UHGV virus genome: UHGV-0367612
Strand: one strand, 5' to 3'
Source: a virus
DNA: 64,000 nucleotides
Shown here: positions 17,193 to 62,530 of the stretch, one piece after another
How positions within the stretch are numbered: position 1 is the first letter of the stretch
Layout of the letters: the number at the start of each line of letters is the position of its first letter
Notes under the pieces: model-generated
What the model saw: only the letters and a program-made list of their open reading frames with translations
What the model was told of the DNA's origin: nothing
Database searches by the model: none
Program-made: the position numbers and the translations under genes

Positions 17193-19655
17193 TTAAATCG
17201 GATTTGTTACTAAGTTTTTCTTACCTTTTCTGATATAGTTAGTTATGGCTTCAGCCATTATGCAGTCATCTGTGTATACTGCATCATCATCGTAGATGTT
17301 ATCATCGTTTGCCTTATCTTTACCCATTGCCACTGGCCTATTTCTGGAATCGAATATGAATGTATATGACTCATCCACAAAGAATTTGTTACATATATTC
17401 ACTTGGTCAAAACGGATATCTTCTTCTAACTCATCTATAATAATTGGTCTAGTGGATGTGGTTGTATACCAACCTGGGATATCTTCTACCTCAGGCTTAC
17501 TTTTACCTTTCTTTTTCAAGAGTTTTTTGGCGTAATACAAGTTAGGATAACCGTGATCCTGAATCTTAGAAGTTACTGCCAACCCAATATCATTTGATTC
17601 TGGTGCTATCAAAGCATTGTTGAAACGTTTACCGGTATGCATGAGGAGGTTTGCATACTTAGAGGGATTTATCTTTCCCCTAAAATAAGCTAACTCCTCC
17701 CCATACCGGTTCATAACAGAAAATGCAGAATAGTCGTTTGCTCTACCAATAGCAACGTCTGCTCCGATAAAGCATCTCTCACCAGGTTTAGCGAAACGTC
17801 GTATGAAAAGTTTCCCATTCTGTTCAATGGAAATATAATCATCTGGATAAGGTAAGCATTCCTCTATTGCTCTGATACAATTCAAATCGAATACCGTATT
17901 ACCTGAAGAAAGGAAGTCACCATCAATCTCCTGTGCTGTTCTCCTTGGACCCAGTGACTTAGCCATCGAGTTATACCACTCCTCGTTTCTTTCAGGGTGC
18001 ATTTGCCAATACAACCGAATAGGATTGAAATAACTATCTCCATTTTTGGCATCAACCCATTGTTTGTGAAAGAAGTTCCCAATACCCATTGGCGTGTTAT
18101 GGTTGATATACAGCGAGTTACATATATAAGATTGATCCTCTTCTACTGAAATATCATATATGTTCTCATAGGTGACGTTCACTAATTTTAACTTAGAAAT
18201 ATTCACCTTTGTAACCCTCTTGTTGTTTATAACTCTACTGATATATGAAGCATTTACTCTTAACCCTAATTCATCTTCAATCTCTCTCATAATAATCTTA
18301 GATGAACCATAGGAGTTACCATACTTTTGATACTTCTCTTTTATCTTACCTATCAATAAGATATCTGGAAATTTATCACCCACACTTGGAGCAACTTTAA
18401 ATGTGGGGGAAAGGTTTACTGCTCTCTTAGTATTTTCTGATTGAGATAGTATTTGTAAGTTTGTTACATAATTATGAGAATGGTCACAATCTATATGGTC
18501 TACTACATAACCTTCTGGAATATCACCTATAAATAATTTAGCTACTAATCTTGATACTGAAAAGTTCTTACTCTCCCCATTTGCCCAAAGCTTAAACCTA
18601 TAATACCCAGAATTACCTAGTATGGGTTCTTTCTCTATCAGAGAATCACCATCCTTTATATATAACTTACCCCAGTTAGATAACATATATTTTGGATAAC
18701 CAGGTATATTCTTGAATATCTCAATACTTGGTTTCTCGGTTTTTTTTGTTTCTAACTTCTTAAACCCTGTATCAAAGGTTATTATATTTAAACCTTCTCT
18801 AACAATTCTACCTACTGACCTCCAACCCTCTGTAGTATATAATTTATGAGCTGGAGTACATCTCAAAGTATTTCCTTGTTCATCTTCTACTTCCCAGGTT
18901 TTCAATATACCTTTGTTCACAGAGTGTGTTACTTTTCTCCACTTACCAGTATGTGATAATACTTCTATCCCTAAATGAGATATATCTTTTATCCCCATTT
19001 CTTTTGGGCATACAGTATCAATTCTCAATGGTCCTTCTTTTGTAACTATTTCAGTATCACCTGTAACGCAAGAGTTTAGGATAGCACTACCTCCAGTTGA
19101 TAGAGTGGGGAATGCTGCTGCCCAGATCCTATCAGCCCATCTTACAATTGCCGCCTCGTCTATCACAAGAAGAGAAACTGCCTCTGAACGACCGGCTTCT
19201 TCTGTTGTGGGGACTGATGTTATTGATGACCCATTCACAAACTCAAGTACTGTGGCAGTACCAAATGAGTCTCCACGTATTTGAGTTACAGGAGTTTGTA
19301 ACCATTCTGGCAGGTTTTTGTACATGTACTTAATCCTTTTCAAAACTCTCTTTGCAACCATATCCTTGATCGAGATAATCTGGATATTCTTGTTGTCATT
19401 AAACATGGCTAACCATAAGCAAAAGAAAGCGATAAGCTCTGTTAAACCTGCCTGACGAAACTTAAGTATGATGTTGAAACGGTTGTTCAGAAAATTCCAG
19501 AGAACTGCTCTCTGGTATTCGTAGAGTTTGAATTGTACTTTACCCTTAACAGGATGAATGATATACACAAAGTTTGCAAGGTAGAATGGATTTACCTTGC
19601 ATGTCCTGTATATTTCAAATTGTTCCTTCGTAAGAGTTACTATCTTTTTCTCCAT
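17193..19655 (-). CDS. terL: terminase large subunit interrupted by an intein
   Basis: Walker A-like 'KFRQAGLTE' and Walker B 'LLVIDEAA' at the N-terminus. The C-terminal nuclease/extein part resumes after 'HN|T'. A 325-aa insertion begins 'CVTGDTEI' and ends '...SLYINHN'. An 820-aa TerL is plausible only once the intein is accounted for. Confidence 0.8.
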   Translation of the reverse strand: MEKKIVTLTKEQFEIYRTCKVNPFYLANFVYIIHPVKGKVQFKLYEYQRAVLWNFLNNRFNIILKFRQAGLTELIAFFCLWLAMFNDNKNIQIISIKDMVAKRVLKRIKYMYKNLPEWLQTPVTQIRGDSFGTATVLEFVNGSSITSVPTTEEAGRSEAVSLLVIDEAAIVRWADRIWAAAFPTLSTGGSAILNSCVTGDTEIVTKEGPLRIDTVCPKEMGIKDISHLGIEVLSHTGKWRKVTHSVNKGILKTWEVEDEQGNTLRCTPAHKLYTTEGWRSVGRIVREGLNIITFDTGFKKLETKKTEKPSIEIFKNIPGYPKYMLSNWGKLYIKDGDSLIEKEPILGNSGYYRFKLWANGESKNFSVSRLVAKLFIGDIPEGYVVDHIDCDHSHNYVTNLQILSQSENTKRAVNLSPTFKVAPSVGDKFPDILLIGKIKEKYQKYGNSYGSSKIIMREIEDELGLRVNASYISRVINNKRVTKVNISKLKLVNVTYENIYDISVEEDQSYICNSLYINHNTPMGIGNFFHKQWVDAKNGDSYFNPIRLYWQMHPERNEEWYNSMAKSLGPRRTAQEIDGDFLSSGNTVFDLNCIRAIEECLPYPDDYISIEQNGKLFIRRFAKPGERCFIGADVAIGRANDYSAFSVMNRYGEELAYFRGKINPSKYANLLMHTGKRFNNALIAPESNDIGLAVTSKIQDHGYPNLYYAKKLLKKKGKSKPEVEDIPGWYTTTSTRPIIIDELEEDIRFDQVNICNKFFVDESYTFIFDSRNRPVAMGKDKANDDNIYDDDAVYTDDCIMAEAITNYIRKGKKNLVTNPI
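18096..19070 (-). mobile_element. intein with HNH homing-endonuclease domain inside terL
   Basis: Splicing block A 'C-VTGDTEIV', C-terminal block 'IYDISVEE...LYINHN' followed by the +1 Thr. The internal HNH motif is 'VVDHIDCDHSHNYVTNLQILSQSENTKRAV'. Confidence 0.75.
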
Positions 19656-20592: not shown

Positions 20593-21603
20593 CTAAATAA
20601 ACTTTTTGTGTCTGAAAATCCATTCCAATGATTGTTTTATCCATGTCCCTACTTCATAAGGGGGGCACTTAGCTACTGTAGTACGGCCTTTGTTTATCCA
20701 ATAGTTGATGTTCTCCCTCTCTGCATGGATTATGAATTCATCAGGTATTCCCTGTATCCTAGCTAATTCTCTAGGACTCATCTGATAACCATCGGGATTG
20801 AATTGTCTGTTTGATTTCCTAGCTACTTGAGGATATGAATGCTTCAGGTTTCTGTAAACACCCGGTGCAGAAGAGTATTTACGTTTACTAGCTATGAATC
20901 TCTTTTCATTCGGATGATCTATCCAATACCTTCTTACTTCAGATAATGTCATCTTAAATCCGGCATACATAGTTACTTCAGAATTTATCAACTCAGTGAT
21001 ATGTCCCCAAGGTATAGAATGGTTGTTGGATTTTAATCCTTTTAACAAAATTCCAGTAGTTTTAGGCTTATGTTCTTTAAATTTCGTGATGTGTTTCCAT
21101 ATCAGTTTATGATTAACTGGGAAATCTTTCCTTATACCCATCACTATAAGCCTTATTCTCCCAACTTGAGAATTCCCAAACTTTAACACTGAGCCAGTTA
21201 AGTAATGTAAGTGGTATTCTTCACTAAGCCATTTTATCTCCTTAACAGAATATTTGGCTTTCGGTAAATTCTCCATGAAAAATATACTCGGTTTATAGGT
21301 TTTTATCTGGTCAAAGAACATGGCAAATGAATCATTATCAAGAGGATTAGAGAATTCTTTTGCCCTTGTTAAAGCCATCATTGATGATGATCCACAATCT
21401 GGTGCTCCCACTATCACATCTGGGAAATCAAATACTTCTTCAGGTTTTTTGTAGAATGGTATACCTTCAAAATTCCTATTCCACTGGATATTGTTTTGAG
21501 TATGGAATAAACTCCTACTCTCAATATTTCCAGTAAGGTTGTCTTTCATTGGGTATAACCAAGAACCATTACCCCCACATACTGCTAAAATTTTGTGTTT
21601 CAT
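20593..21603 (-). CDS. DNA (cytosine-5)-methyltransferase family protein
   Basis: Motif I 'LAVCGGNGS', ENV-like 'FFMENLP', motif VIII-like 'SQVGRIRLIVMG', motif IX/X 'SPRELARIQGIPDEF'. The catalytic PC motif is atypical ('GAPDCGSSS'). Confidence 0.6.
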   Translation of the reverse strand: MKHKILAVCGGNGSWLYPMKDNLTGNIESRSLFHTQNNIQWNRNFEGIPFYKKPEEVFDFPDVIVGAPDCGSSSMMALTRAKEFSNPLDNDSFAMFFDQIKTYKPSIFFMENLPKAKYSVKEIKWLSEEYHLHYLTGSVLKFGNSQVGRIRLIVMGIRKDFPVNHKLIWKHITKFKEHKPKTTGILLKGLKSNNHSIPWGHITELINSEVTMYAGFKMTLSEVRRYWIDHPNEKRFIASKRKYSSAPGVYRNLKHSYPQVARKSNRQFNPDGYQMSPRELARIQGIPDEFIIHAERENINYWINKGRTTVAKCPPYEVGTWIKQSLEWIFRHKKFI

Positions 21604-21777: not shown

Positions 21778-22173
21778 ATGGAAACACAATTCAAGAATAG
21801 GCAGGATTTAGTGGATTACTTTGAGAATCTCCCAAGGATGTTATACATCGTTATGGGTGATAAACGAGTTACTTTACACTCATATAAATTCGCAAGGTTA
21901 ATCCTTTTCTCTATGGGTGCTGAAATGCACAGAGATGGTAAGTTAGATTTACTTGCATACACCAAATTAACTCGGATGTATTCCCAAGATTTCATTGACA
22001 ATCAAGGTGGAACAAACAGACAAGAATACCAATATGATGACAGTGAGATGGATTTCATTGAAGAAATGGTATCTCTATTCTCACTTGAGATATTGAGAGC
22101 TGGGTTTATATCTGATGTACAATTCAGAATCCTATTATGTAATGAGAATGTGATAGATGTTATACTCCAATGA
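21778..22173 (+). CDS. hypothetical protein
   Basis: 131-aa ORF, first gene of the plus-strand block. Divergent from the MTase gene. Confidence 0.35.
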   Translation: METQFKNRQDLVDYFENLPRMLYIVMGDKRVTLHSYKFARLILFSMGAEMHRDGKLDLLAYTKLTRMYSQDFIDNQGGTNRQEYQYDDSEMDFIEEMVSLFSLEILRAGFISDVQFRILLCNENVIDVILQ

Positions 22174-22718
22174 GAAAATGTAAGGATAAAAGGATGTATG
22201 AACCTCATGTAGAGGTTTTGAAGTATATACTTGATTTAGACCAAGACCCATTTTGTGGTTTTGTTTTACCTGATTGCACAAGGAACAATCTTATAAACCT
22301 TGACAGAGTGAATTACAGTATAACTGGGATAAGGATTATAGATGAGACTTACATGTGGCAGGATATTGAGGTTGATGGTAAGTTACACATAACAAGCCCG
22401 CTTTACATAGAAACTATTACAGAATACAACAAGTATTTAAAACACATATCAAAAGAGATGGCAGTAAATTACGAAATAGGGGATTTAAGACCAGTTGATT
22501 TCAAGGAGGCTAACAGATTATTACAAGGTAGTGATGAGAATATAGAACCCTTGAAAGTTTATAATGATGGTACAATGTCAGTATCCTGTTGGAAGATGAC
22601 ATTAAGAGATATACTTAGGTTATTATTTAATCCTAAGAAAAGATATATTTGGATGGGTATAAAAGCTGGACAATCGCAACCACCAGTATGGTTAACCACC
22701 AGATACCCGTTCAAATAG
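22170..22718 (+). CDS. hypothetical protein
   Basis: 182-aa ORF. 4-nt overlap with the upstream gene. Confidence 0.35.
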   Translation: MRKCKDKRMYEPHVEVLKYILDLDQDPFCGFVLPDCTRNNLINLDRVNYSITGIRIIDETYMWQDIEVDGKLHITSPLYIETITEYNKYLKHISKEMAVNYEIGDLRPVDFKEANRLLQGSDENIEPLKVYNDGTMSVSCWKMTLRDILRLLFNPKKRYIWMGIKAGQSQPPVWLTTRYPFK

Positions 22719-22801
22719 ATATCCATGAGTGTTAGATTTTACCCAGACTTTTACAGGAGTCTGGGTTTTCTTTGCGTGAACTAATTTAAAATAAACAAGT
22801 T

Positions 22802-23242
22802 ATGGAAATTCCAAAGAACCTACAAAAGTATCACAGTTATTTATGTAATAGCCTACAAAGGCTTAAAGATATGAAGTTAAAGCCTAAACAGATGAAAAAA
22901 GAAACTGTGGGTGTAGAGATAAGGTGTTATAAATGTGGTAAATCATTCAAGATGGTTTTCACCATTGCAGAGTGGGCAGCATACCTTGATACTCAAAGAA
23001 AACTGATAGAAGAGAAAGGTATTGTGATGAGTAATCAAGATACAGTGTCTATGTTCAGATACAAGAACATGAGATTCTTGAAACACCTATTCCTTGAATG
23101 TTGTGAATCCTGTTTACAGGAAGAAGAAAGGATTCAGGTAGATGGGTTAATGTCACTTGAGAATAACATCAAATTAATTCTCGGAACCTATGAAAAAGGA
23201 AAAGAAGAATACGAGAGAGCACCCATTACAAGTTTACTGTAA
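22802..23242 (+). CDS. hypothetical Cys-rich protein
   Basis: 146 aa with 'CYKCGKSF' and 'CCESC' pairs, a possible zinc ribbon. Confidence 0.3.
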   Translation: MEIPKNLQKYHSYLCNSLQRLKDMKLKPKQMKKETVGVEIRCYKCGKSFKMVFTIAEWAAYLDTQRKLIEEKGIVMSNQDTVSMFRYKNMRFLKHLFLECCESCLQEEERIQVDGLMSLENNIKLILGTYEKGKEEYERAPITSLL

Positions 23243-23441
23243 AACCTGTGGTAAACTGTTAGTAGAGGTAGAAGCTGATTGGTACCAGTTTAATTGGTAT
23301 TACGCTCCGTTAGAGATAAGACCACCATTAAGAGAACTGTTTCCTGGAATTACTCATGAACAGTTCTTGGGTTTGAAATACAGGAAATGTGAGCAATGCA
23401 GGAAACAAAAGAAACAAAAGAAACAAAGGATTTGCATTTAG
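23190..23441 (+). CDS. hypothetical zinc-ribbon protein
   Basis: 83 aa with CxxC...CxxC ('CKTCGK' ... 'CEQCRK'). The start may be internal because it overlaps the upstream ORF by 53 nt. Confidence 0.25.
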   Translation: MKKEKKNTREHPLQVYCKTCGKLLVEVEADWYQFNWYYAPLEIRPPLRELFPGITHEQFLGLKYRKCEQCRKQKKQKKQRICI

Positions 23442-23485
23442 TAAAACGGGATATTATATTTGCATTATAATTAAATAATAAAAAT

Positions 23486-23743
23486 ATGGTTATTAAGACT
23501 TTACTAAAATTGATTATCCTAATCCCCACTTTAAAAATCTTAAAATGGTGGTACAGGGGATTTAATATGTTTATTTGGGTTGGATGTGGTATCACATTTA
23601 GTTTTGCAAGGGTATCTGGAAATATGGATTTACTAGATAAAGGGTGGTATAAAACATTCACAGAAGTTTTGGGTTTTAGTTTATACATGATACTTCATGT
23701 ATTATGGATATTAGCTATCAGAGAATTAATCATTAAGTTATAA
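23486..23743 (+). CDS. small membrane protein
   Basis: 85 aa with two or three hydrophobic helices. Confidence 0.3.
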   Translation: MVIKTLLKLIILIPTLKILKWWYRGFNMFIWVGCGITFSFARVSGNMDLLDKGWYKTFTEVLGFSLYMILHVLWILAIRELIIKL

Positions 23744-23744
23744 T

Positions 23745-24809
23745 ATGTTACAGTACTTAGAGTTATTAAAGAAAGTCCATGTTTTAGGGACTTATAGAAA
23801 GCCGGCAAGAGAAGGGATGCCTGCTTCTAAGAATTTATTCGGTGAGATGATGGAAATTGATTTACGTGATGGGTTTCCATTATTAACTACTAAAAAGATG
23901 GCTTGGAATGCTATCAGGGTAGAGTTATTATGGTTCTTGAGAGGAATACCAAACCTAAGGTATTTATGGAGATATAATGTACATATCTGGGACCAAGATG
24001 CTTATAGGTTTTACAAGAGAAAATGTGAGACTTATACGAGGACTCCCATATCTACTTACATGAAGACTCCATTATCTTATGAGGGTTGGTTAGAGAGATT
24101 ATGGGTTATGAGAAATGGTTCTTTCTGGGAAAGAAATCAGGACTTTGACAAGATGACCTATATGGGAGCAGTTTACCCAGCTCAATGGAGAGGTACATTT
24201 GTTTTTGGAGGGTCTTCTCATACTGATCAAATCCTATACATGATAGAGAATATCCGAAATAATCCTACGAGTAGATACCATATAGTTGATGCTTGGAATC
24301 CTATGGATATTGACCTGAACAAAAGGACTCCAGTGTTAGCTTTACCACCTTGTCACATGAGCCACCAAATCTTGGTAGATGTGAAGAGTGGTGAGTTTGA
24401 TATGCTCATGTACCAGAGAAGTGCAGATATTTTCTTGGGAGTACCATTTAACATAGCTAGTTATGCTTTACTATGTTACTTCTATAGCATGATGACTGGA
24501 TATCAACCTAGGTATCTCAAAATGATTTTTGGAAGCGTTGATTTATATGAAACTCATTTTGAGCAAGCAAGAGTTCAATTGAACAGAGATCCCAAGTTAT
24601 TACCGAGATTAAAACTATTACCAAATGAGAATGGTGTTATGGATAGAGTGATGGAGTTCAATATGAAGGCTAAGGAGTATTATGATAACCCCACTCATTC
24701 GAAGTTAAATGAAGTGGTCAATACATTACAACCTTCAGACTTTGAGTTAGTGGGATATGACCCACATCCTGCAATAAAAGGGAAACTAGATACTGGGTTA
24801 GGAATCTAA
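23745..24809 (+). CDS. thyA: thymidylate synthase (ThyA) family enzyme
   Basis: Conserved ThyA blocks 'DGFPLLTTKK', 'ELLWFLRG', 'LPPCHMSHQ' (catalytic Cys) and 'YQRSADIFLGVPFNIASYALL' (Asn of the dUMP-specificity position present), plus C-terminal 'GYDPHP'. Carries a ~48-aa insertion in the folate loop and R->Y at the second Arg of the DSRR motif ('TSRYHIV'). Confidence 0.8.
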   Translation: MLQYLELLKKVHVLGTYRKPAREGMPASKNLFGEMMEIDLRDGFPLLTTKKMAWNAIRVELLWFLRGIPNLRYLWRYNVHIWDQDAYRFYKRKCETYTRTPISTYMKTPLSYEGWLERLWVMRNGSFWERNQDFDKMTYMGAVYPAQWRGTFVFGGSSHTDQILYMIENIRNNPTSRYHIVDAWNPMDIDLNKRTPVLALPPCHMSHQILVDVKSGEFDMLMYQRSADIFLGVPFNIASYALLCYFYSMMTGYQPRYLKMIFGSVDLYETHFEQARVQLNRDPKLLPRLKLLPNENGVMDRVMEFNMKAKEYYDNPTHSKLNEVVNTLQPSDFELVGYDPHPAIKGKLDTGLGI

Positions 24810-51748: not shown

Positions 51749-52700
51749 CGTTCAATAGGTCTTTAAGTAATTTTTTACGTTTCTTTCCCTTTTCCCCAAT
51801 ATAACTGGTGTACTCATCCACCATGGATGACCAGTCATTGAGTTTTATCTCATTAGCAATGGCTCCATCCTTTTCCTTAGTCTTGACGACTTTTCTTTTA
51901 ATGTAAATATCAAAATTTTTTCCAGGTTCACCCTCATACCGAAATTCGGGTAGTTCTGCCTTTTCGAAAGTAAAACCATCCCTATCTAATACCCAATACC
52001 CCATATCCGTTCCCATGTCACAGGTTCTCATCTGCATGGGTGACCCACACATTAAAATATTTTTCCGGAGAAGTTGGGGTTTATGTATATGTCCACATAC
52101 TACGTAATCGAAATGTTGGAAGAAGGTACTTAACTTAGTTTGTTTTCCCTTATTCTCGCATTTCATACCGTTAGTATCCTCTGCACCTGGTAATTCCTTG
52201 TGGATAACCAATATTCTGGGTACATCATGTTTACTCCTCTCCACCACTTTCATAGCATTCTCCAATCCCACATCATCTTTAAGATAAGGTATCCCAATCA
52301 CTTCATAAAATATCCCATCCACTGTTGTGAAATCAATACACCTGAAAAATGGATATAACTCTGAAAAAGTTTTGACCCAGCTCGGAGATTTCCTAGGATC
52401 ATCTCCATCCCTATCATGATTCCCAGTTATACAATATACCACTTCTCCACATACCTTCTGATATATGTAGTGGAAATATTCATTCACTAACCTAAAGAGT
52501 TCATTAGACATGTGGCTTGGGTTATGAAAAAGGTCCCCAGCAATGAGGACCTTAGCTTTTTCATCAGAAGCTTTTACAACCAATTTCGAGAACCAATTAA
52601 GTAGCATCTTTGTCCTGTACAAATCTTGGTTAAATGTGTTCCAATCGTGGATGTGTAAATCACCAAGACAGTAGAATTTACTTGTAAGCTTCATAATCAA
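51732..52700 (-). CDS. Mre11/SbcD-like nuclease (T4 gp47-like)
   Basis: Calcineurin-like phosphoesterase motifs 'GDLHIHD', 'AGDLFHN', 'GNHDRDG', 'CGHIHKP'. Confidence 0.75.
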   Translation of the reverse strand: MIMKLTSKFYCLGDLHIHDWNTFNQDLYRTKMLLNWFSKLVVKASDEKAKVLIAGDLFHNPSHMSNELFRLVNEYFHYIYQKVCGEVVYCITGNHDRDGDDPRKSPSWVKTFSELYPFFRCIDFTTVDGIFYEVIGIPYLKDDVGLENAMKVVERSKHDVPRILVIHKELPGAEDTNGMKCENKGKQTKLSTFFQHFDYVVCGHIHKPQLLRKNILMCGSPMQMRTCDMGTDMGYWVLDRDGFTFEKAELPEFRYEGEPGKNFDIYIKRKVVKTKEKDGAIANEIKLNDWSSMVDEYTSYIGEKGKKRKKLLKDLLNDAEIS

Positions 52701-53421
52701 ATTTGTTGTAGGTTATATACTCGTGGAGTCTCACATACTCATCACCTTCAAAGCAACCCACATTCTCAATAATATGAGCTACTGCCAATACTCTATGTTT
52801 AAAATCCTTGGCATCTATCTTGGCACTATAGATGATATTCTTTCTCCCTAAGAATCTCAACTCTCCCCAACTGAAAGGTAATACCTGTTCATGGTAATAA
52901 TGTTTCACGTTCTCCATGAAATACCGGAAATCAAATCCACTGAACAATAGGTTGGATTTTAATTGGTATGACTCATCAGATATCCTTTTACCATCAGCTT
53001 CTGTTTCCCATGAGAAAGGTCTTATCAATCTGATAAAGATTGTCGTGTAGTTGTGATTTTCCAAATCACTTCTCAACATCTCCATACATTTCTCACAGTA
53101 CTCTCTATGTAAAGAATATGGCTTTGGCATATCCATATAATAAATCAGGTTGTCAATGATTGACCTGTCTGTGATAAAGTTTACCTTATCACCCAATACT
53201 TTCTTCCGGTTTTCAAGAATAGCCATTTGGTATTTGTGAGCCCAATTATAATCTCCTGATAACTGGAGAGCATGTTCATGGGATTTTATTCCAAACTCTT
53301 CCCAAACATTGCTGGCAGAAGTGTTCACGTATTCTAAACCAAGTTCTTGGGAAATACATTTAGCCAATGTTGTTTTTCCTAGACCTGATGCTCCGCTGAG
53401 ATAAATTCTTAAAGGTTTCAT
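52678..53421 (-). CDS. P-loop nucleotide kinase (putative dNMP kinase)
   Basis: Walker A 'SGASGLGKTT' at the N-terminus. 247 aa. Sits in the nucleotide-metabolism/replication block. Confidence 0.45.
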   Translation of the reverse strand: MKPLRIYLSGASGLGKTTLAKCISQELGLEYVNTSASNVWEEFGIKSHEHALQLSGDYNWAHKYQMAILENRKKVLGDKVNFITDRSIIDNLIYYMDMPKPYSLHREYCEKCMEMLRSDLENHNYTTIFIRLIRPFSWETEADGKRISDESYQLKSNLLFSGFDFRYFMENVKHYYHEQVLPFSWGELRFLGRKNIIYSAKIDAKDFKHRVLAVAHIIENVGCFEGDEYVRLHEYITYNKFDYEAYK

Positions 53422-61500: not shown

Positions 61501-61767
61501 ACCTATATATTTTAATACCCTTTTCCACTTATTCCCTTTTCTCAATGGAGAATCTTTATGAGCTAAAGGTATTACATAAGCATACCCAGGTTGGAATGCT
61601 ATAGATATACAAGTAGGATATCCTCTATGATCAGAACTATGATGACCGGATGTCTCATAGTCATGGGCACAATATCCGGTCATCTTGCAGTACTTAACAA
61701 CTTTCTTTACATCGGCCATGGTTTTGGCCCAACTAAAGTGATAGTTATCTAGTACGTCCTTGTTCAT
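58558..61767 (-). CDS. family A DNA polymerase with 3'-5' exonuclease, interrupted by an intein
   Basis: Exo I 'AHDYETSG'. Pol motif A 'LDYSQAELRV'. Motif B is split: 'RRKQAK' [310-aa insert 'CYSGDTEIL ... IVLSGN'] 'TIGFGVLYQQG'. The C-terminal part carries the motif C region. Confidence 0.85.
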   Translation of the reverse strand: MNKDVLDNYHFSWAKTMADVKKVVKYCKMTGYCAHDYETSGHHSSDHRGYPTCISIAFQPGYAYVIPLAHKDSPLRKGNKWKRVLKYIGRELIQNDRIVKVAHNFKFEHGWWLKYGIRPRGVILDTMLMKYLLNEKRPHDLKSLAYSFFPQYANYSIKGEDTERTPEEVVQFWSNVPLETLAPYNALDSDLCLRLSIYLEQRIRECGFYQLYRNLLEMASYNLAEVESRGYLVDRPYLDGLCESYKIKIEEAEAKMYAVPSLVKYNKKRVKAAKKALLDGLLEQIEIKTNELDNTTDKKKLGSLQRSITNLQKKYDNYSAGVGLTKKDKESLQPLNLKSVKQLIDFLYYNKYGLRLPIIKYTEDKKTKKPTKNPATSEDVLLELKDKDETGFIETLLKYREITKLYSTYIVGIRDILNPDNTLHGSFLIHGTVTGRLSSRNPNLQNMPRDTTAKDIKYMFVCPKGKVMMQLDYSQAELRVVAGWSQDKQMLEWFRVGHDIHLATACKKYKISYEDAYKIYSNEDDPNYKTWKVRRKQAKCYSGDTEILTPTGWQRLDSYDGKSLVAQYNFDTEEISWVKPSAYGKVISKNNYTYKSRTVSLDVTSTHKTLFVTRHQKKIRTDFKNLVNKSGYMPVAGKVNFEFEDENLTRFLAMFTADGNIKNQWEKIRFGFSKEHKANRCRELLALCNIDYTEAIRNGKHYFCIIKKTNQPLYQWLSNWVSMGKELSWECLSHISGKIYLEEAQYWDSNISNKTGYVSFSTVVKQTAQVMQAMGHMNGIMVSFSETKVGDRTRYHLGYNLRRDTHLTRVDLNNSILTKTEGGRDMWGVTVDDHNLLVRKDNKIVLSGNTIGFGVLYQQGPNHLKESLSTPDHKATKEEAIEFLDEWFDTFPRIRKFVKKQQKFAEEHGYVVSPFGRKRRLPEARNKREQGKYAKALRDAVNAPIQGTASDFALFSSILIREQIMQGKLPASIEQIGTIHDSIMFYLDPKDMNDEVVDHLFNICKDPDTQKYFGFKLKGITMAVDFELGLRWSKLKGYKRGTDYAEVYKDCYIDHWWENKEIVALQEAS
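59221..60150 (-). mobile_element. intein with LAGLIDADG-type homing endonuclease in DNA polymerase motif B
   Basis: Starts at Cys after 'RRKQAK' and ends 'VLSGN' before Thr. The internal 'LTRFLAMFTADGNIK' is LAGLIDADG-like. Coordinates are approximate (plus or minus 3 nt). Confidence 0.7.
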
Positions 61768-62530
61768 CTTCTATACAATTTTTAAGTATATCCCAATCTT
61801 TCCTGTAAGAGTGGAGTGATGCAATATTATGGTACAGGTATCCAGGTTTTAAATCCTTCATACCCTTTGATCTCAATACCTGGGTAATGTATTCTTTCAA
61901 CTGCCAAGCCAGGAATACATCATTACCAAAGTGAGTTACTACATCCGCTGAACGTTGGTTGTAAATAATATGCAACCTGTTTTCTCGGATAATTAGTTGG
62001 TAATACATTGAGCATGGTACCCTTCTCTTTCCTCCAATATATGCTCCATCATTTTCCAAATCCCAGATAGGTAAAATACCTTGACGAGTATCTGGGTTAC
62101 GGAATAATTCATCTACCACTCTCTCAAGATTACCTACTTCATCTTCCTCTTCTCCACCTGGGCAGAAGTTCATCCTCTCTCCATAGGCATAATCGAATTT
62201 CCCATTTACCAAGAACTCTTCCCAAATCTCTTTTCTGATTTTCCAAGCTTCACCTGGGTTTAATCTTGCAGGATTTACTCTCTCATTAAACTCTGCAATA
62301 GCCCACTTCTTGGTGGTTTCAATATCTGTTTGGGTTCCATTGAAAAGGTACTCTTCTCTGTTCAATGTCAATAAACAGTAAGAGTAATTCAGAATTTCCC
62401 GGGTCTCAAAGTTAATGTCACCTTCAATATTTTTATTCTGCATTGACTTTGGCCTAACTATAGATGACATCTCCCACACCTCACGTCTTATTTCAGACAT
62501 TAACTGATAGCAATCATCGTATATCCTCAT
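61745..62530 (-). CDS. deoxynucleotide hydroxymethylase (T4 gp42 / dCMP hydroxymethylase family)
   Basis: 'RRVPCSMYYQLIIRENRLHIIYNQRSADVVTHFGNDVFLAWQ' aligns with T4 gp42 'FMC(148)TNTVQYLIRDKKINAVVNMRSNDVVFGFRND(179)YAWQ', as recalled from memory. The catalytic Cys and the Asn-Asp pair are both present. Confidence 0.7.
   Translation of the reverse strand: MRIYDDCYQLMSEIRREVWEMSSIVRPKSMQNKNIEGDINFETREILNYSYCLLTLNREEYLFNGTQTDIETTKKWAIAEFNERVNPARLNPGEAWKIRKEIWEEFLVNGKFDYAYGERMNFCPGGEEEDEVGNLERVVDELFRNPDTRQGILPIWDLENDGAYIGGKRRVPCSMYYQLIIRENRLHIIYNQRSADVVTHFGNDVFLAWQLKEYITQVLRSKGMKDLKPGYLYHNIASLHSYRKDWDILKNCIEDEQGRTR

Follow-up and report, generated by a model that had tools for sequence, protein, structure and literature searches.

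Does a ThyA-family gene in a plus-strand block of UHGV virus genome UHGV-0367612 encode a thymidylate synthase (TS) or a hydroxymethylase of deoxyuridine monophosphate (dUMP)? The stretch of this genome that was analyzed (64,000 nucleotides; here, the window) carries two TS-family genes, and the initial annotation had left both options open for the one studied here (the query; the other is the paralog). We find that the query is very probably a functional, homodimeric ThyA-type TS, divergent but bona fide, and as judged from sequence its product is most likely deoxythymidine monophosphate (dTMP), not hydroxymethyl-dUMP.

The query is an ATG-started open reading frame (ORF) of 354 amino acids (aa) plus stop, with its ATG 1 nucleotide past the stop codon of the preceding plus-strand ORF. 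It matched PF00303 (238.6 bits, cutoff 24.3; E=8.9e-71; residues 3 to 347), TIGR03284 (240.1 bits, cutoff 108.35) and phrog_160 (E=8e-79), and fell under the cutoffs of the stricter NF0024xx equivalog models (243 versus 325). The top PDB sequence match was Enterococcus faecalis TS (3uwl; E=4e-56), and Lactobacillus casei TS (1lca and mutants) matched at E~4e-54. The same two enzymes were the top Foldseek matches (~350 to 360 aligned columns; template modeling [TM] score 0.83 to 0.91, normalized to target) of an AlphaFold2 (AF2) model with a predicted local distance difference test (pLDDT) of 89.8 and a predicted TM score (pTM) of 0.90. Every string quoted in the initial annotation (LPPCH, VPFNIASYALL, IWDQD, AVYPAQWR, TSRYHIV, and GSVDLY) was found in the query, and its claim of a ThyA-superfamily gene with the catalytic PCH and the dUMP-specificity Asn was borne out by the family models, by C203-H204, and by N236. 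Residues are numbered after Escherichia coli ThyA (Ec; sequence 100% identical to PDB 1aob, residues 1 to 264) unless given as query residues. One MAFFT run misplaced the query IWDQD and the paralog GND; HMMER and larger alignments were used there.

A residue table of the 120 best homologs fell into three layers. The first was canonical ThyA; the second was a phage-borne "SRY" subfamily with Tyr127, Asp83, Ser or Cys at 205, and a tail ~2 aa longer; the third, the query clade (the query and six clusters at 50 to 92% identity), adds Asp207, a C-terminal insert, and an even longer tail. In an exhaustive search of 1.84 billion cluster representatives, which contained 11,107 TS-family representatives, the query clade formed one 50%-identity cluster (552 bits), with the next match at 225 bits.

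In MetaGPA, dUMP-methylating TS (Asn, His) are told apart from cytosine-modifying enzymes by positions 177 and 147 (PMC8670742). Hydroxymethylation has a signature of its own, an acidic residue at −3 from the catalytic Cys, which activates the substrate water, and a Ser two residues before Tyr94/96; the TS equivalents are Leu143 and Val93, and Leu143 with Val/Ile93 excludes water, hence hydride transfer and not hydration (PMC6400193, PMC13326640). T4 D145N makes no 5-hydroxymethyl-deoxycytidine monophosphate (dCMP), and the TS active site is sealed by a C-terminal tail that T4 dCMP hydroxymethylase is without (PMC6400193). D169N is the mark of 5-hydroxy-dCMP synthases (PMC13326640), and Ec R126' and S167 are the positions to which ribo/deoxyribo preference has been mapped, with MilA as the reference (PMC5175136). 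All members of the query clade, the query included, have Asn177 (query N236, in VPFNIASY, the dUMP-over-dCMP specificity position), His147, Leu143 (query L200), Val93 (query V143), Asp169, Arg126', Ser167, and a tail. Also kept in the query are R21, K48, E58, W80, Y94, C146, Q165, R166, and Y209. Query R22, E60, Y144, R177, C203, H204, R225, S226, and D228, all catalytic or ligand residues, are invariant in the clade, all catalytic residues are unchanged across relatives down to 50% identity, and query Q224, R225, S226, D228, and N236, which serve phosphate, folate, and uracil specificity, are all conserved. The dCMP hydroxymethylase state, Asp at 177 and non-His at 147, contrasts with the query's Asn and His and is the one seen in the paralog.

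A dUMP hydroxymethylase would hydrate, not reduce, the exocyclic methylene intermediate and so supply 5-hydroxymethyl-dUMP (5-hmdUMP) for hydroxymethyluracil-containing or hypermodified DNA. Such enzymes (SPO1 gp29, M6-like, ViI-like) share with the query the fold, the substrates dUMP and 5,10-methylene-tetrahydrofolate (CH2-THF), the specificity Asn, and Ser205, and several features of the query lean the same way: N177 points to a uracil substrate; SPO1 gp29, with Ser and Gln, resembles the query in D205→Ser and in having lost R127; Asp stands in place of W83, a residue credited with control of solvent access; the lid is altered; and SPO1-like Herelleviridae are distant relatives of the phage. 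However, these hydroxymethylases have Asp at −3, Asn at 147, no IWDEW, and a different C-terminal region. All six hydroxymethylase-type proteins compared (SPO1 gp29, the M6-like Pseudomonas phage PA_LZ03 and ViI-like Salmonella phage S118 homologs, AB434P2, T4 gp42, and the carbamoyltransferase-linked paralog on contig L011; an annotated Agathobaculum phage dUMP hydroxymethyltransferase is included) carried Asp at −3, with either Asn or Thr at 147. The query has Leu at −3, the position at which T4 D145N is dead for hydroxymethylation, as well as His147 and its tail. In BLASTP the query scored 166 bits with E. coli ThyA, 152 bits with T4 td, 29 to 44 bits with four dUMP-hydroxymethylase-type proteins, and 20 bits with T4 gp42.

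The phylogeny against characterized enzymes that the initial annotation had proposed was run as a numpy neighbor-joining tree (46 taxa, 286 columns, 200 bootstraps). In it, the query clade (100% support) was nested inside bona fide TS, grouped with the SRY subfamily and one further representative, P0024 (80% support), with T4 td more basal than the query; SPO1 gp29, T4 gp42, and the paralog were split from all TS (97% support). The clustering with TS that the initial annotation had named, along with thyA complementation, as refuting its reading was thereby obtained. Between the two options first offered, the evidence (L143, H147, N177, V93, D169, the tail, and the BLASTP scores) sides with the TS, and a hydroxymethylase is highly improbable.

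The Asp at position 83 has parallels among TS. Among 149 diverse representatives, which also served for the counts at positions 127, 205, and 207, Asp occurred at this position (query Asp85) in 87, Asn in 26, and Trp in 35, and T4 td has Asn. The best named phage matches, the Bastillevirinae type 1 TS (015DV004, Moonbeam, Deep Blue, and BSP14; ~36 to 39% identity; PMC4528723), resemble the query in an IW.DDAY motif (W83→Asp), a medium insert at the same site, an IKGKLS[VT]GL tail, and a Herelleviridae-type background. Unlike the query, they keep SRR and GDAHLY and lie in a TS-deoxynucleoside monophosphate (dNMP) kinase-dihydrofolate reductase (DHFR) cassette; the query sits in a separate plus-strand block, with no DHFR found in the ORFs scanned. 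A DHFR is required only where the reaction gives dihydrofolate, i.e., in TS chemistry, and the presence of W83→Asp in DHFR-linked TS counts against the hydroxymethylase reading. Genes for dTTP exclusion and dUMP supply would be expected alongside a dUMP hydroxymethylase. Among the ORFs scanned with Pfam there was no dUTPase/dTTPase, dCMP deaminase, or DNA-glycosylase-like hypermodification gene, with a 5-HMUDK-type kinase not specifically tested; PHROGs likewise gave no dUTPase or dCMP deaminase partner among ~45 ORFs, most of them orphans in an incomplete genome.

The query also departs from model TS at phosphate and sugar ligands. The R→Y exchange in the DSRR motif, seen in the initial annotation, is real: Ec R127' (TSRYHIV versus DSRRIIV) is query Tyr178, which leaves the four-arginine phosphate site of TS incomplete. 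Tyr occurred here in 30 of the 149 representatives. R127' is non-essential in L. casei (R179'), and the TS of Vibrio parahaemolyticus (VAAP clade), naturally Gly at this position, is active with a raised Km (PMC6005164); the PDB contains L. casei R179A/E/K/T structures. R127'→Tyr is a recurrent natural variant, and the arginine, being non-essential and naturally Gly in an active enzyme, is not family-defining. The Vibrio TS resembles the query in lacking this arginine; it is bacterial, has Gly and not Tyr, keeps H207, and is not closely related. A ribo/deoxyribo shift through R127→Tyr, by analogy with MilA K133', was considered and rejected, since the Ec counterpart of K133' is R126' and not R127', and the query is TS-type at R126' as well as at S167. 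A strict coupling of R127→Tyr with D205→Ser was also rejected: it holds in the 120 closest homologs except P0024, and 16 of the 30 diverse representatives with Tyr127 keep D205.

The one-residue deletion that had been proposed near His207 is absent; HMMER and MAFFT both align GSVDLY gap-free to GDAHLY/GDTHLY, and the difference consists of D205→Ser (query Ser264) and H207→Asp (query Asp266). At position 205, Ser occurred in 16 and Asp in 119 of the 149 representatives. His207 was found in 147 of the 149 and in every characterized TS-family enzyme compared. It hydrogen-bonds the dUMP 3'-OH (PMC6005164, PMC5175136), and of the His207/Tyr209 ligand pair only the tyrosine (query Y268) is kept. Asp207 occurred in one other representative only, P0341, which is a cytosine-type enzyme with N177D and H147L; the idea that other TS-type enzymes share H207→Asp was rejected. 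Precedent or mutational data for H207→Asp were looked for, and none were found. Asp266 could accept the same 3'-OH hydrogen bond, and H207→Asp, at a sugar-binding position, appears to be the sole truly unusual active-site change of the query.

Several observations weigh against a functional TS. The 3'-OH ligand H207 is Asp; the query clade sits on a long branch of the tree; and, as weak counter-evidence, R127L has been linked to reduced ThyA function in Mycobacterium tuberculosis and model TS lose dTMP formation when their C terminus is altered. The query tail is 4 aa longer than that of E. coli; PDB 6cdz (I264Am, a C-terminal change) was among the structure matches. No DHFR was found in Pfam/PHROGs scans of ~45 window ORFs, most of which are without a family match, the window being a partial genome; many phages depend on host FolA. 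With two ligand-contact residues replaced, an altered lid, and a somewhat lower codon-usage correlation with the large genes (r=0.68 versus 0.75 to 0.90), the gene might be an impaired or decaying copy kept for a non-enzymatic role, e.g., binding its own mRNA or nucleotides. However, it is under purifying selection (dN/dS, the ratio of nonsynonymous to synonymous substitution rates, of 0.12 and 0.22 against two orthologs), and the invariance of its catalytic residues at 50% identity, its confidently predicted fold, and its conserved synteny make decay exceedingly improbable.

Four length differences set the query apart from E. coli ThyA. The W80-Y94 segment spans 61 aa, as against 13 in E. coli (+48 aa), so that the insertion size given in the initial annotation was exact. 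Its novelty did not hold, as Lactobacillales (L. casei/E. faecalis-type) ThyA has 63 aa at this site and 47 of the 118 closest homologs have an insert of 37 to 63 aa there. HMMER aligned the query along the whole small-domain insert of E. faecalis and L. casei TS, and AF2 predicted helices at query residues 83 to 97, 112 to 123, and 132 to 137; the insert is the known small domain of long-form Firmicute ThyA, no novel folate-loop decoration. These Lactobacillales long-form enzymes (1lca/4tms and 3uwl), the query's best sequence and fold matches, carry a ~50-aa helical insert at the same place and share an identical YQRSADIFLGVPFNIASYALL core with the query. They differ in keeping W85, R179, D257, and H259 (L. 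casei numbering) and a short APVAV tail, and in being without the query's +6 loop and +27 C-terminal insert; identity over the fold alignment is ~34 to 36%.

The other three differences, like W83→Asp, were absent from the initial annotation. The +6 loop is partly helical by AF2 (helix 186 to 194). The Y209-K259 span is 76 aa, versus 49 in E. coli (+27 aa), and spans of 70 to 78 aa were confined to the query clade among the 118 closest homologs. The tail after the conserved Lys is 9 aa, versus 5 in E. coli, with the P-A-I-K motif kept and with low pLDDT, as expected of a mobile lid. The +27-aa insert and the longer tail are specific to the clade. By sequence comparison, only His207→Asp, the C-terminal insert, and tail length seem truly distinctive of the query clade.

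These features could also mark a neofunctionalized TS-fold enzyme, in which the Y178/S264/D266 pocket, the helical insert, and the longer lid change substrate (e.g., to another sugar or phosphorylation state), regulation, or docking into a phage complex that synthesizes deoxynucleoside triphosphates (dNTPs). H207→Asp is clade-invariant and nearly absent elsewhere, the branch is long, the +27-aa two-helix insert is confidently predicted and clade-only, and the clade is a single 50%-identity cluster among the TS-family representatives searched. Against this, the MilA-defined ribose-selectivity positions are deoxyribo/TS-type, the hydrogen bond from the 3'-OH can still be accepted by Asp, no catalytic residue is lost, and T4 td, a normal TS, also has an insert at that C-terminal site. 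We consider neofunctionalization improbable. There is likewise a slim chance that the remodeled pocket (Tyr178, Ser264, and Asp266), the two-helix insert, and the longer lid alter what the enzyme binds or releases; if so, it would be a TS using a nucleotide other than plain dUMP, or one with a leaky lid giving some 5-hmdUMP, and a naturally evolved intermediate from methylase to hydroxymethylase.

As a TS, the query is expected to act by attack of Cys203 on C6 of dUMP, after which the one-carbon unit of CH2-THF would be passed to C5. A hydrophobic, lid-closed site (query Leu200, Trp82, Val143, and the C-terminal tail) would then favor hydride transfer from tetrahydrofolate, giving dTMP and dihydrofolate, and the dTMP could be phosphorylated in the infected cell by a thymidylate-kinase-like protein. 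The cytosine-type paralog beside the polymerase gene would handle dCMP, a division of labor like that of T4 td and gene 42. A TS accompanied by a cytosine-type paralog is the classical T4 arrangement and as such no surprise. T4 td (PDB 1tis), a phage TS co-resident with a cytosine-type paralog like the query, has Asn83 and Asn205, an IKGK tail start, and, where the query has its C-terminal insert, a smaller one; unlike the query, it keeps R127 and H207, has a 5-aa tail, and lies adjacent to frd (DHFR) and nrdAB. At the position of the hydroxymethylase signature, the window paralog has Arg in place of the Asp of T4 gene 42.

As it stands, the locus represents routine phage nucleotide metabolism, a predicted dTMP-producing enzyme accompanied by a cytosine-modifying paralog as in T4. 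The long small-domain insert, Asp at Trp83, the longer lid, and Tyr for the dispensable fourth arginine are traits of a phage-borne TS lineage. Phage TS commonly have Tyr for the fourth phosphate-binding arginine (~20% of the closest diverse clusters), and the report of the Vibrio Gly substitution as the first natural case (PMC6005164) understates the frequency of this loss among them. Trp83 and the 5-residue tail, deemed invariant in model TS, are minority states in phage-type relatives, and in His207→Asp nature offers a rare experiment at a position held invariant. An assay of the query clade would probe to what extent the TS active site is indispensable, and annotation rules drawn from it would stop miscalls between TS and hydroxymethylases in either direction.

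TABLE 1. Positions of the query gene, its sequence features, and other genes of the window (Ec, E. coli ThyA numbering)
Feature	Coordinates	Strand	Basis or remark
Predicted ThyA-type thymidylate synthase gene	23745..24809	+	PF00303, TIGR03284, phrog_160, 3uwl, AF2
Small-domain insert, residues 83-143, from W82 (Ec W80) to Y144 (Ec Y94), with D85 for Ec W83 at its beginning	23991..24173	+	Segment lengths, alignment, AF2
S176-R177-Y178: Arg126' kept, Arg127'→Tyr	24270..24278	+	Alignment
Loop PMDIDLNKRTPVL, +6 aa versus E. coli, ahead of the catalytic strand	24300..24338	+	Alignment lengths, AF2
L200-P-P-C203-H204: catalytic Cys, Leu at −3 (Ec L143), His at +1 (Ec H147)	24342..24356	+	Alignment
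Q224-R225-S226-A-D228...N236 (Ec Q165, R166, S167, D169, N177)	24414..24452	+	Alignment
G263-S-V-D266-L-Y268: D205→Ser, H207→Asp, Y209 kept, no indel	24531..24548	+	HMMER, MAFFT
Clade-specific C-terminal insert, ~+27 aa	24618..24737	+	Lengths; confident AF2 helices 299-314, 318-327
C-terminal tail GKLDTGLGI	24780..24806	+	Alignment lengths, pLDDT
Five upstream plus-strand ORFs of the conserved block	21778..23743	+	Same block in L002-L005
Large terminase subunit with intein	17193..19655	−	
C5-cytosine DNA methyltransferase homolog	20593..21603	−	PF00145, E=3e-15
Thymidylate-kinase-like P-loop protein, candidate dNMP kinase for the step after TS	52678..53421	−	AAA_28; phrog_2107, E=6.6e-13
Family-A DNA polymerase, 1,069 aa	58558..61767	−	
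Paralogous TS-family gene, 261 aa, cytosine-type (Asn-Asp), no C-terminal tail	61745..62530	−	PF00303, E=1e-15

Six plus-strand ORFs (21778 to 24809), of which the TS gene is the final one, lie between minus-strand packaging and fiber genes; the block is flanked by a PF00145 C5-cytosine DNA methylase gene and an intein-containing terminase gene on one side and by fiber genes on the other. The separate plus-strand block of the initial annotation was thereby confirmed. Its moron-like character was not, since relatives with a TS of only 55 to 67% identity have the gene at the same place and its guanine-plus-cytosine content is 37.1%, versus 36.8% for the window; the gene is a conserved part of these genomes and no recent moron. 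When the 3 kb surrounding the gene were searched by megablast against 50,697 phage records, nothing matched, and at the DNA level this AT-rich phage is novel. The replication module of the window comprises PolA, ligase, a gp32-like single-stranded DNA-binding protein, RecA/UvsX, FEN, SbcCD, and RusA; the SbcD-SbcC-RusA-regulator stretch follows SPO1 gene order, and the polymerase is 29 to 40% identical to those of Spounavirinae and of a human-fecal phage contig.

The second TS-family gene, reported in the initial annotation as a paralog, was recovered next to the DNA polymerase gene; its top PDB match was T4 dCMP hydroxymethylase. It belongs to a large, strictly cytosine-type metagenomic family (468 matches), of which 120 members showed invariant Asn-Asp, Cys, Glu, Tyr, and His/Tyr ligands. 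The family has Arg at the hydroxymethylase-signature Asp (T4 D145) in 119 of the 120, Tyr for the signature Ser94, Gln for R124, and no C-terminal tail. From these residues, the paralog fits neither T4 dCMP hydroxymethylase, nor a D169N 5-hydroxy-dCMP synthase, nor a lid-closed methylase, and may represent new chemistry.

SRY-type TS elsewhere were also phage genes, in genomes with base-modification modules. The SRY-type TS contigs L010 (12521-16088), L012 (10599-11333), and L013 (10582-11226) encode QueC, and L010 also encodes a radical-SAM protein; these 7-deazaguanine-type DNA modification genes occur with a CbbQ/CobT-like ATPase pair. Contig L011 (1381-8897; Logan SRR21150925_39079) encodes a carbamoyltransferase, an AAA_28 kinase-like gene, a dUTPase, a T4-like dCMP hydroxymethylase with both the Asp and the Ser of the signature, and an SRY-type TS. 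Its gene content resembles the 5-carbamoyloxymethyl-cytosine system of PMC8670742, here joined by a dedicated dTMP synthase, and the co-occurrence of SRY-type TS with modification modules fits a TS that keeps dTMP supplied during modification of another base.

The C5-cytosine DNA methyltransferase homolog adjoins the TS block in all relatives (L002, 6482-7495; L003, 6481-7494; L005, 6653-7780). A C5-methylase beside a nucleotide-level cytosine paralog is curious, as total pre-replication replacement of cytosine would remove its substrate. The intein of the large terminase subunit, also present in L002, L003, and L005, contains an HNH/NUMOD4 homing-endonuclease domain. The family-A DNA polymerase gene was covered by tblastn only in two pieces (~67%), which suggests an inserted element or domain in mid-gene; the SPO1 polymerase gene is intron-interrupted, and the L012 polymerase has a LAGLIDADG match.

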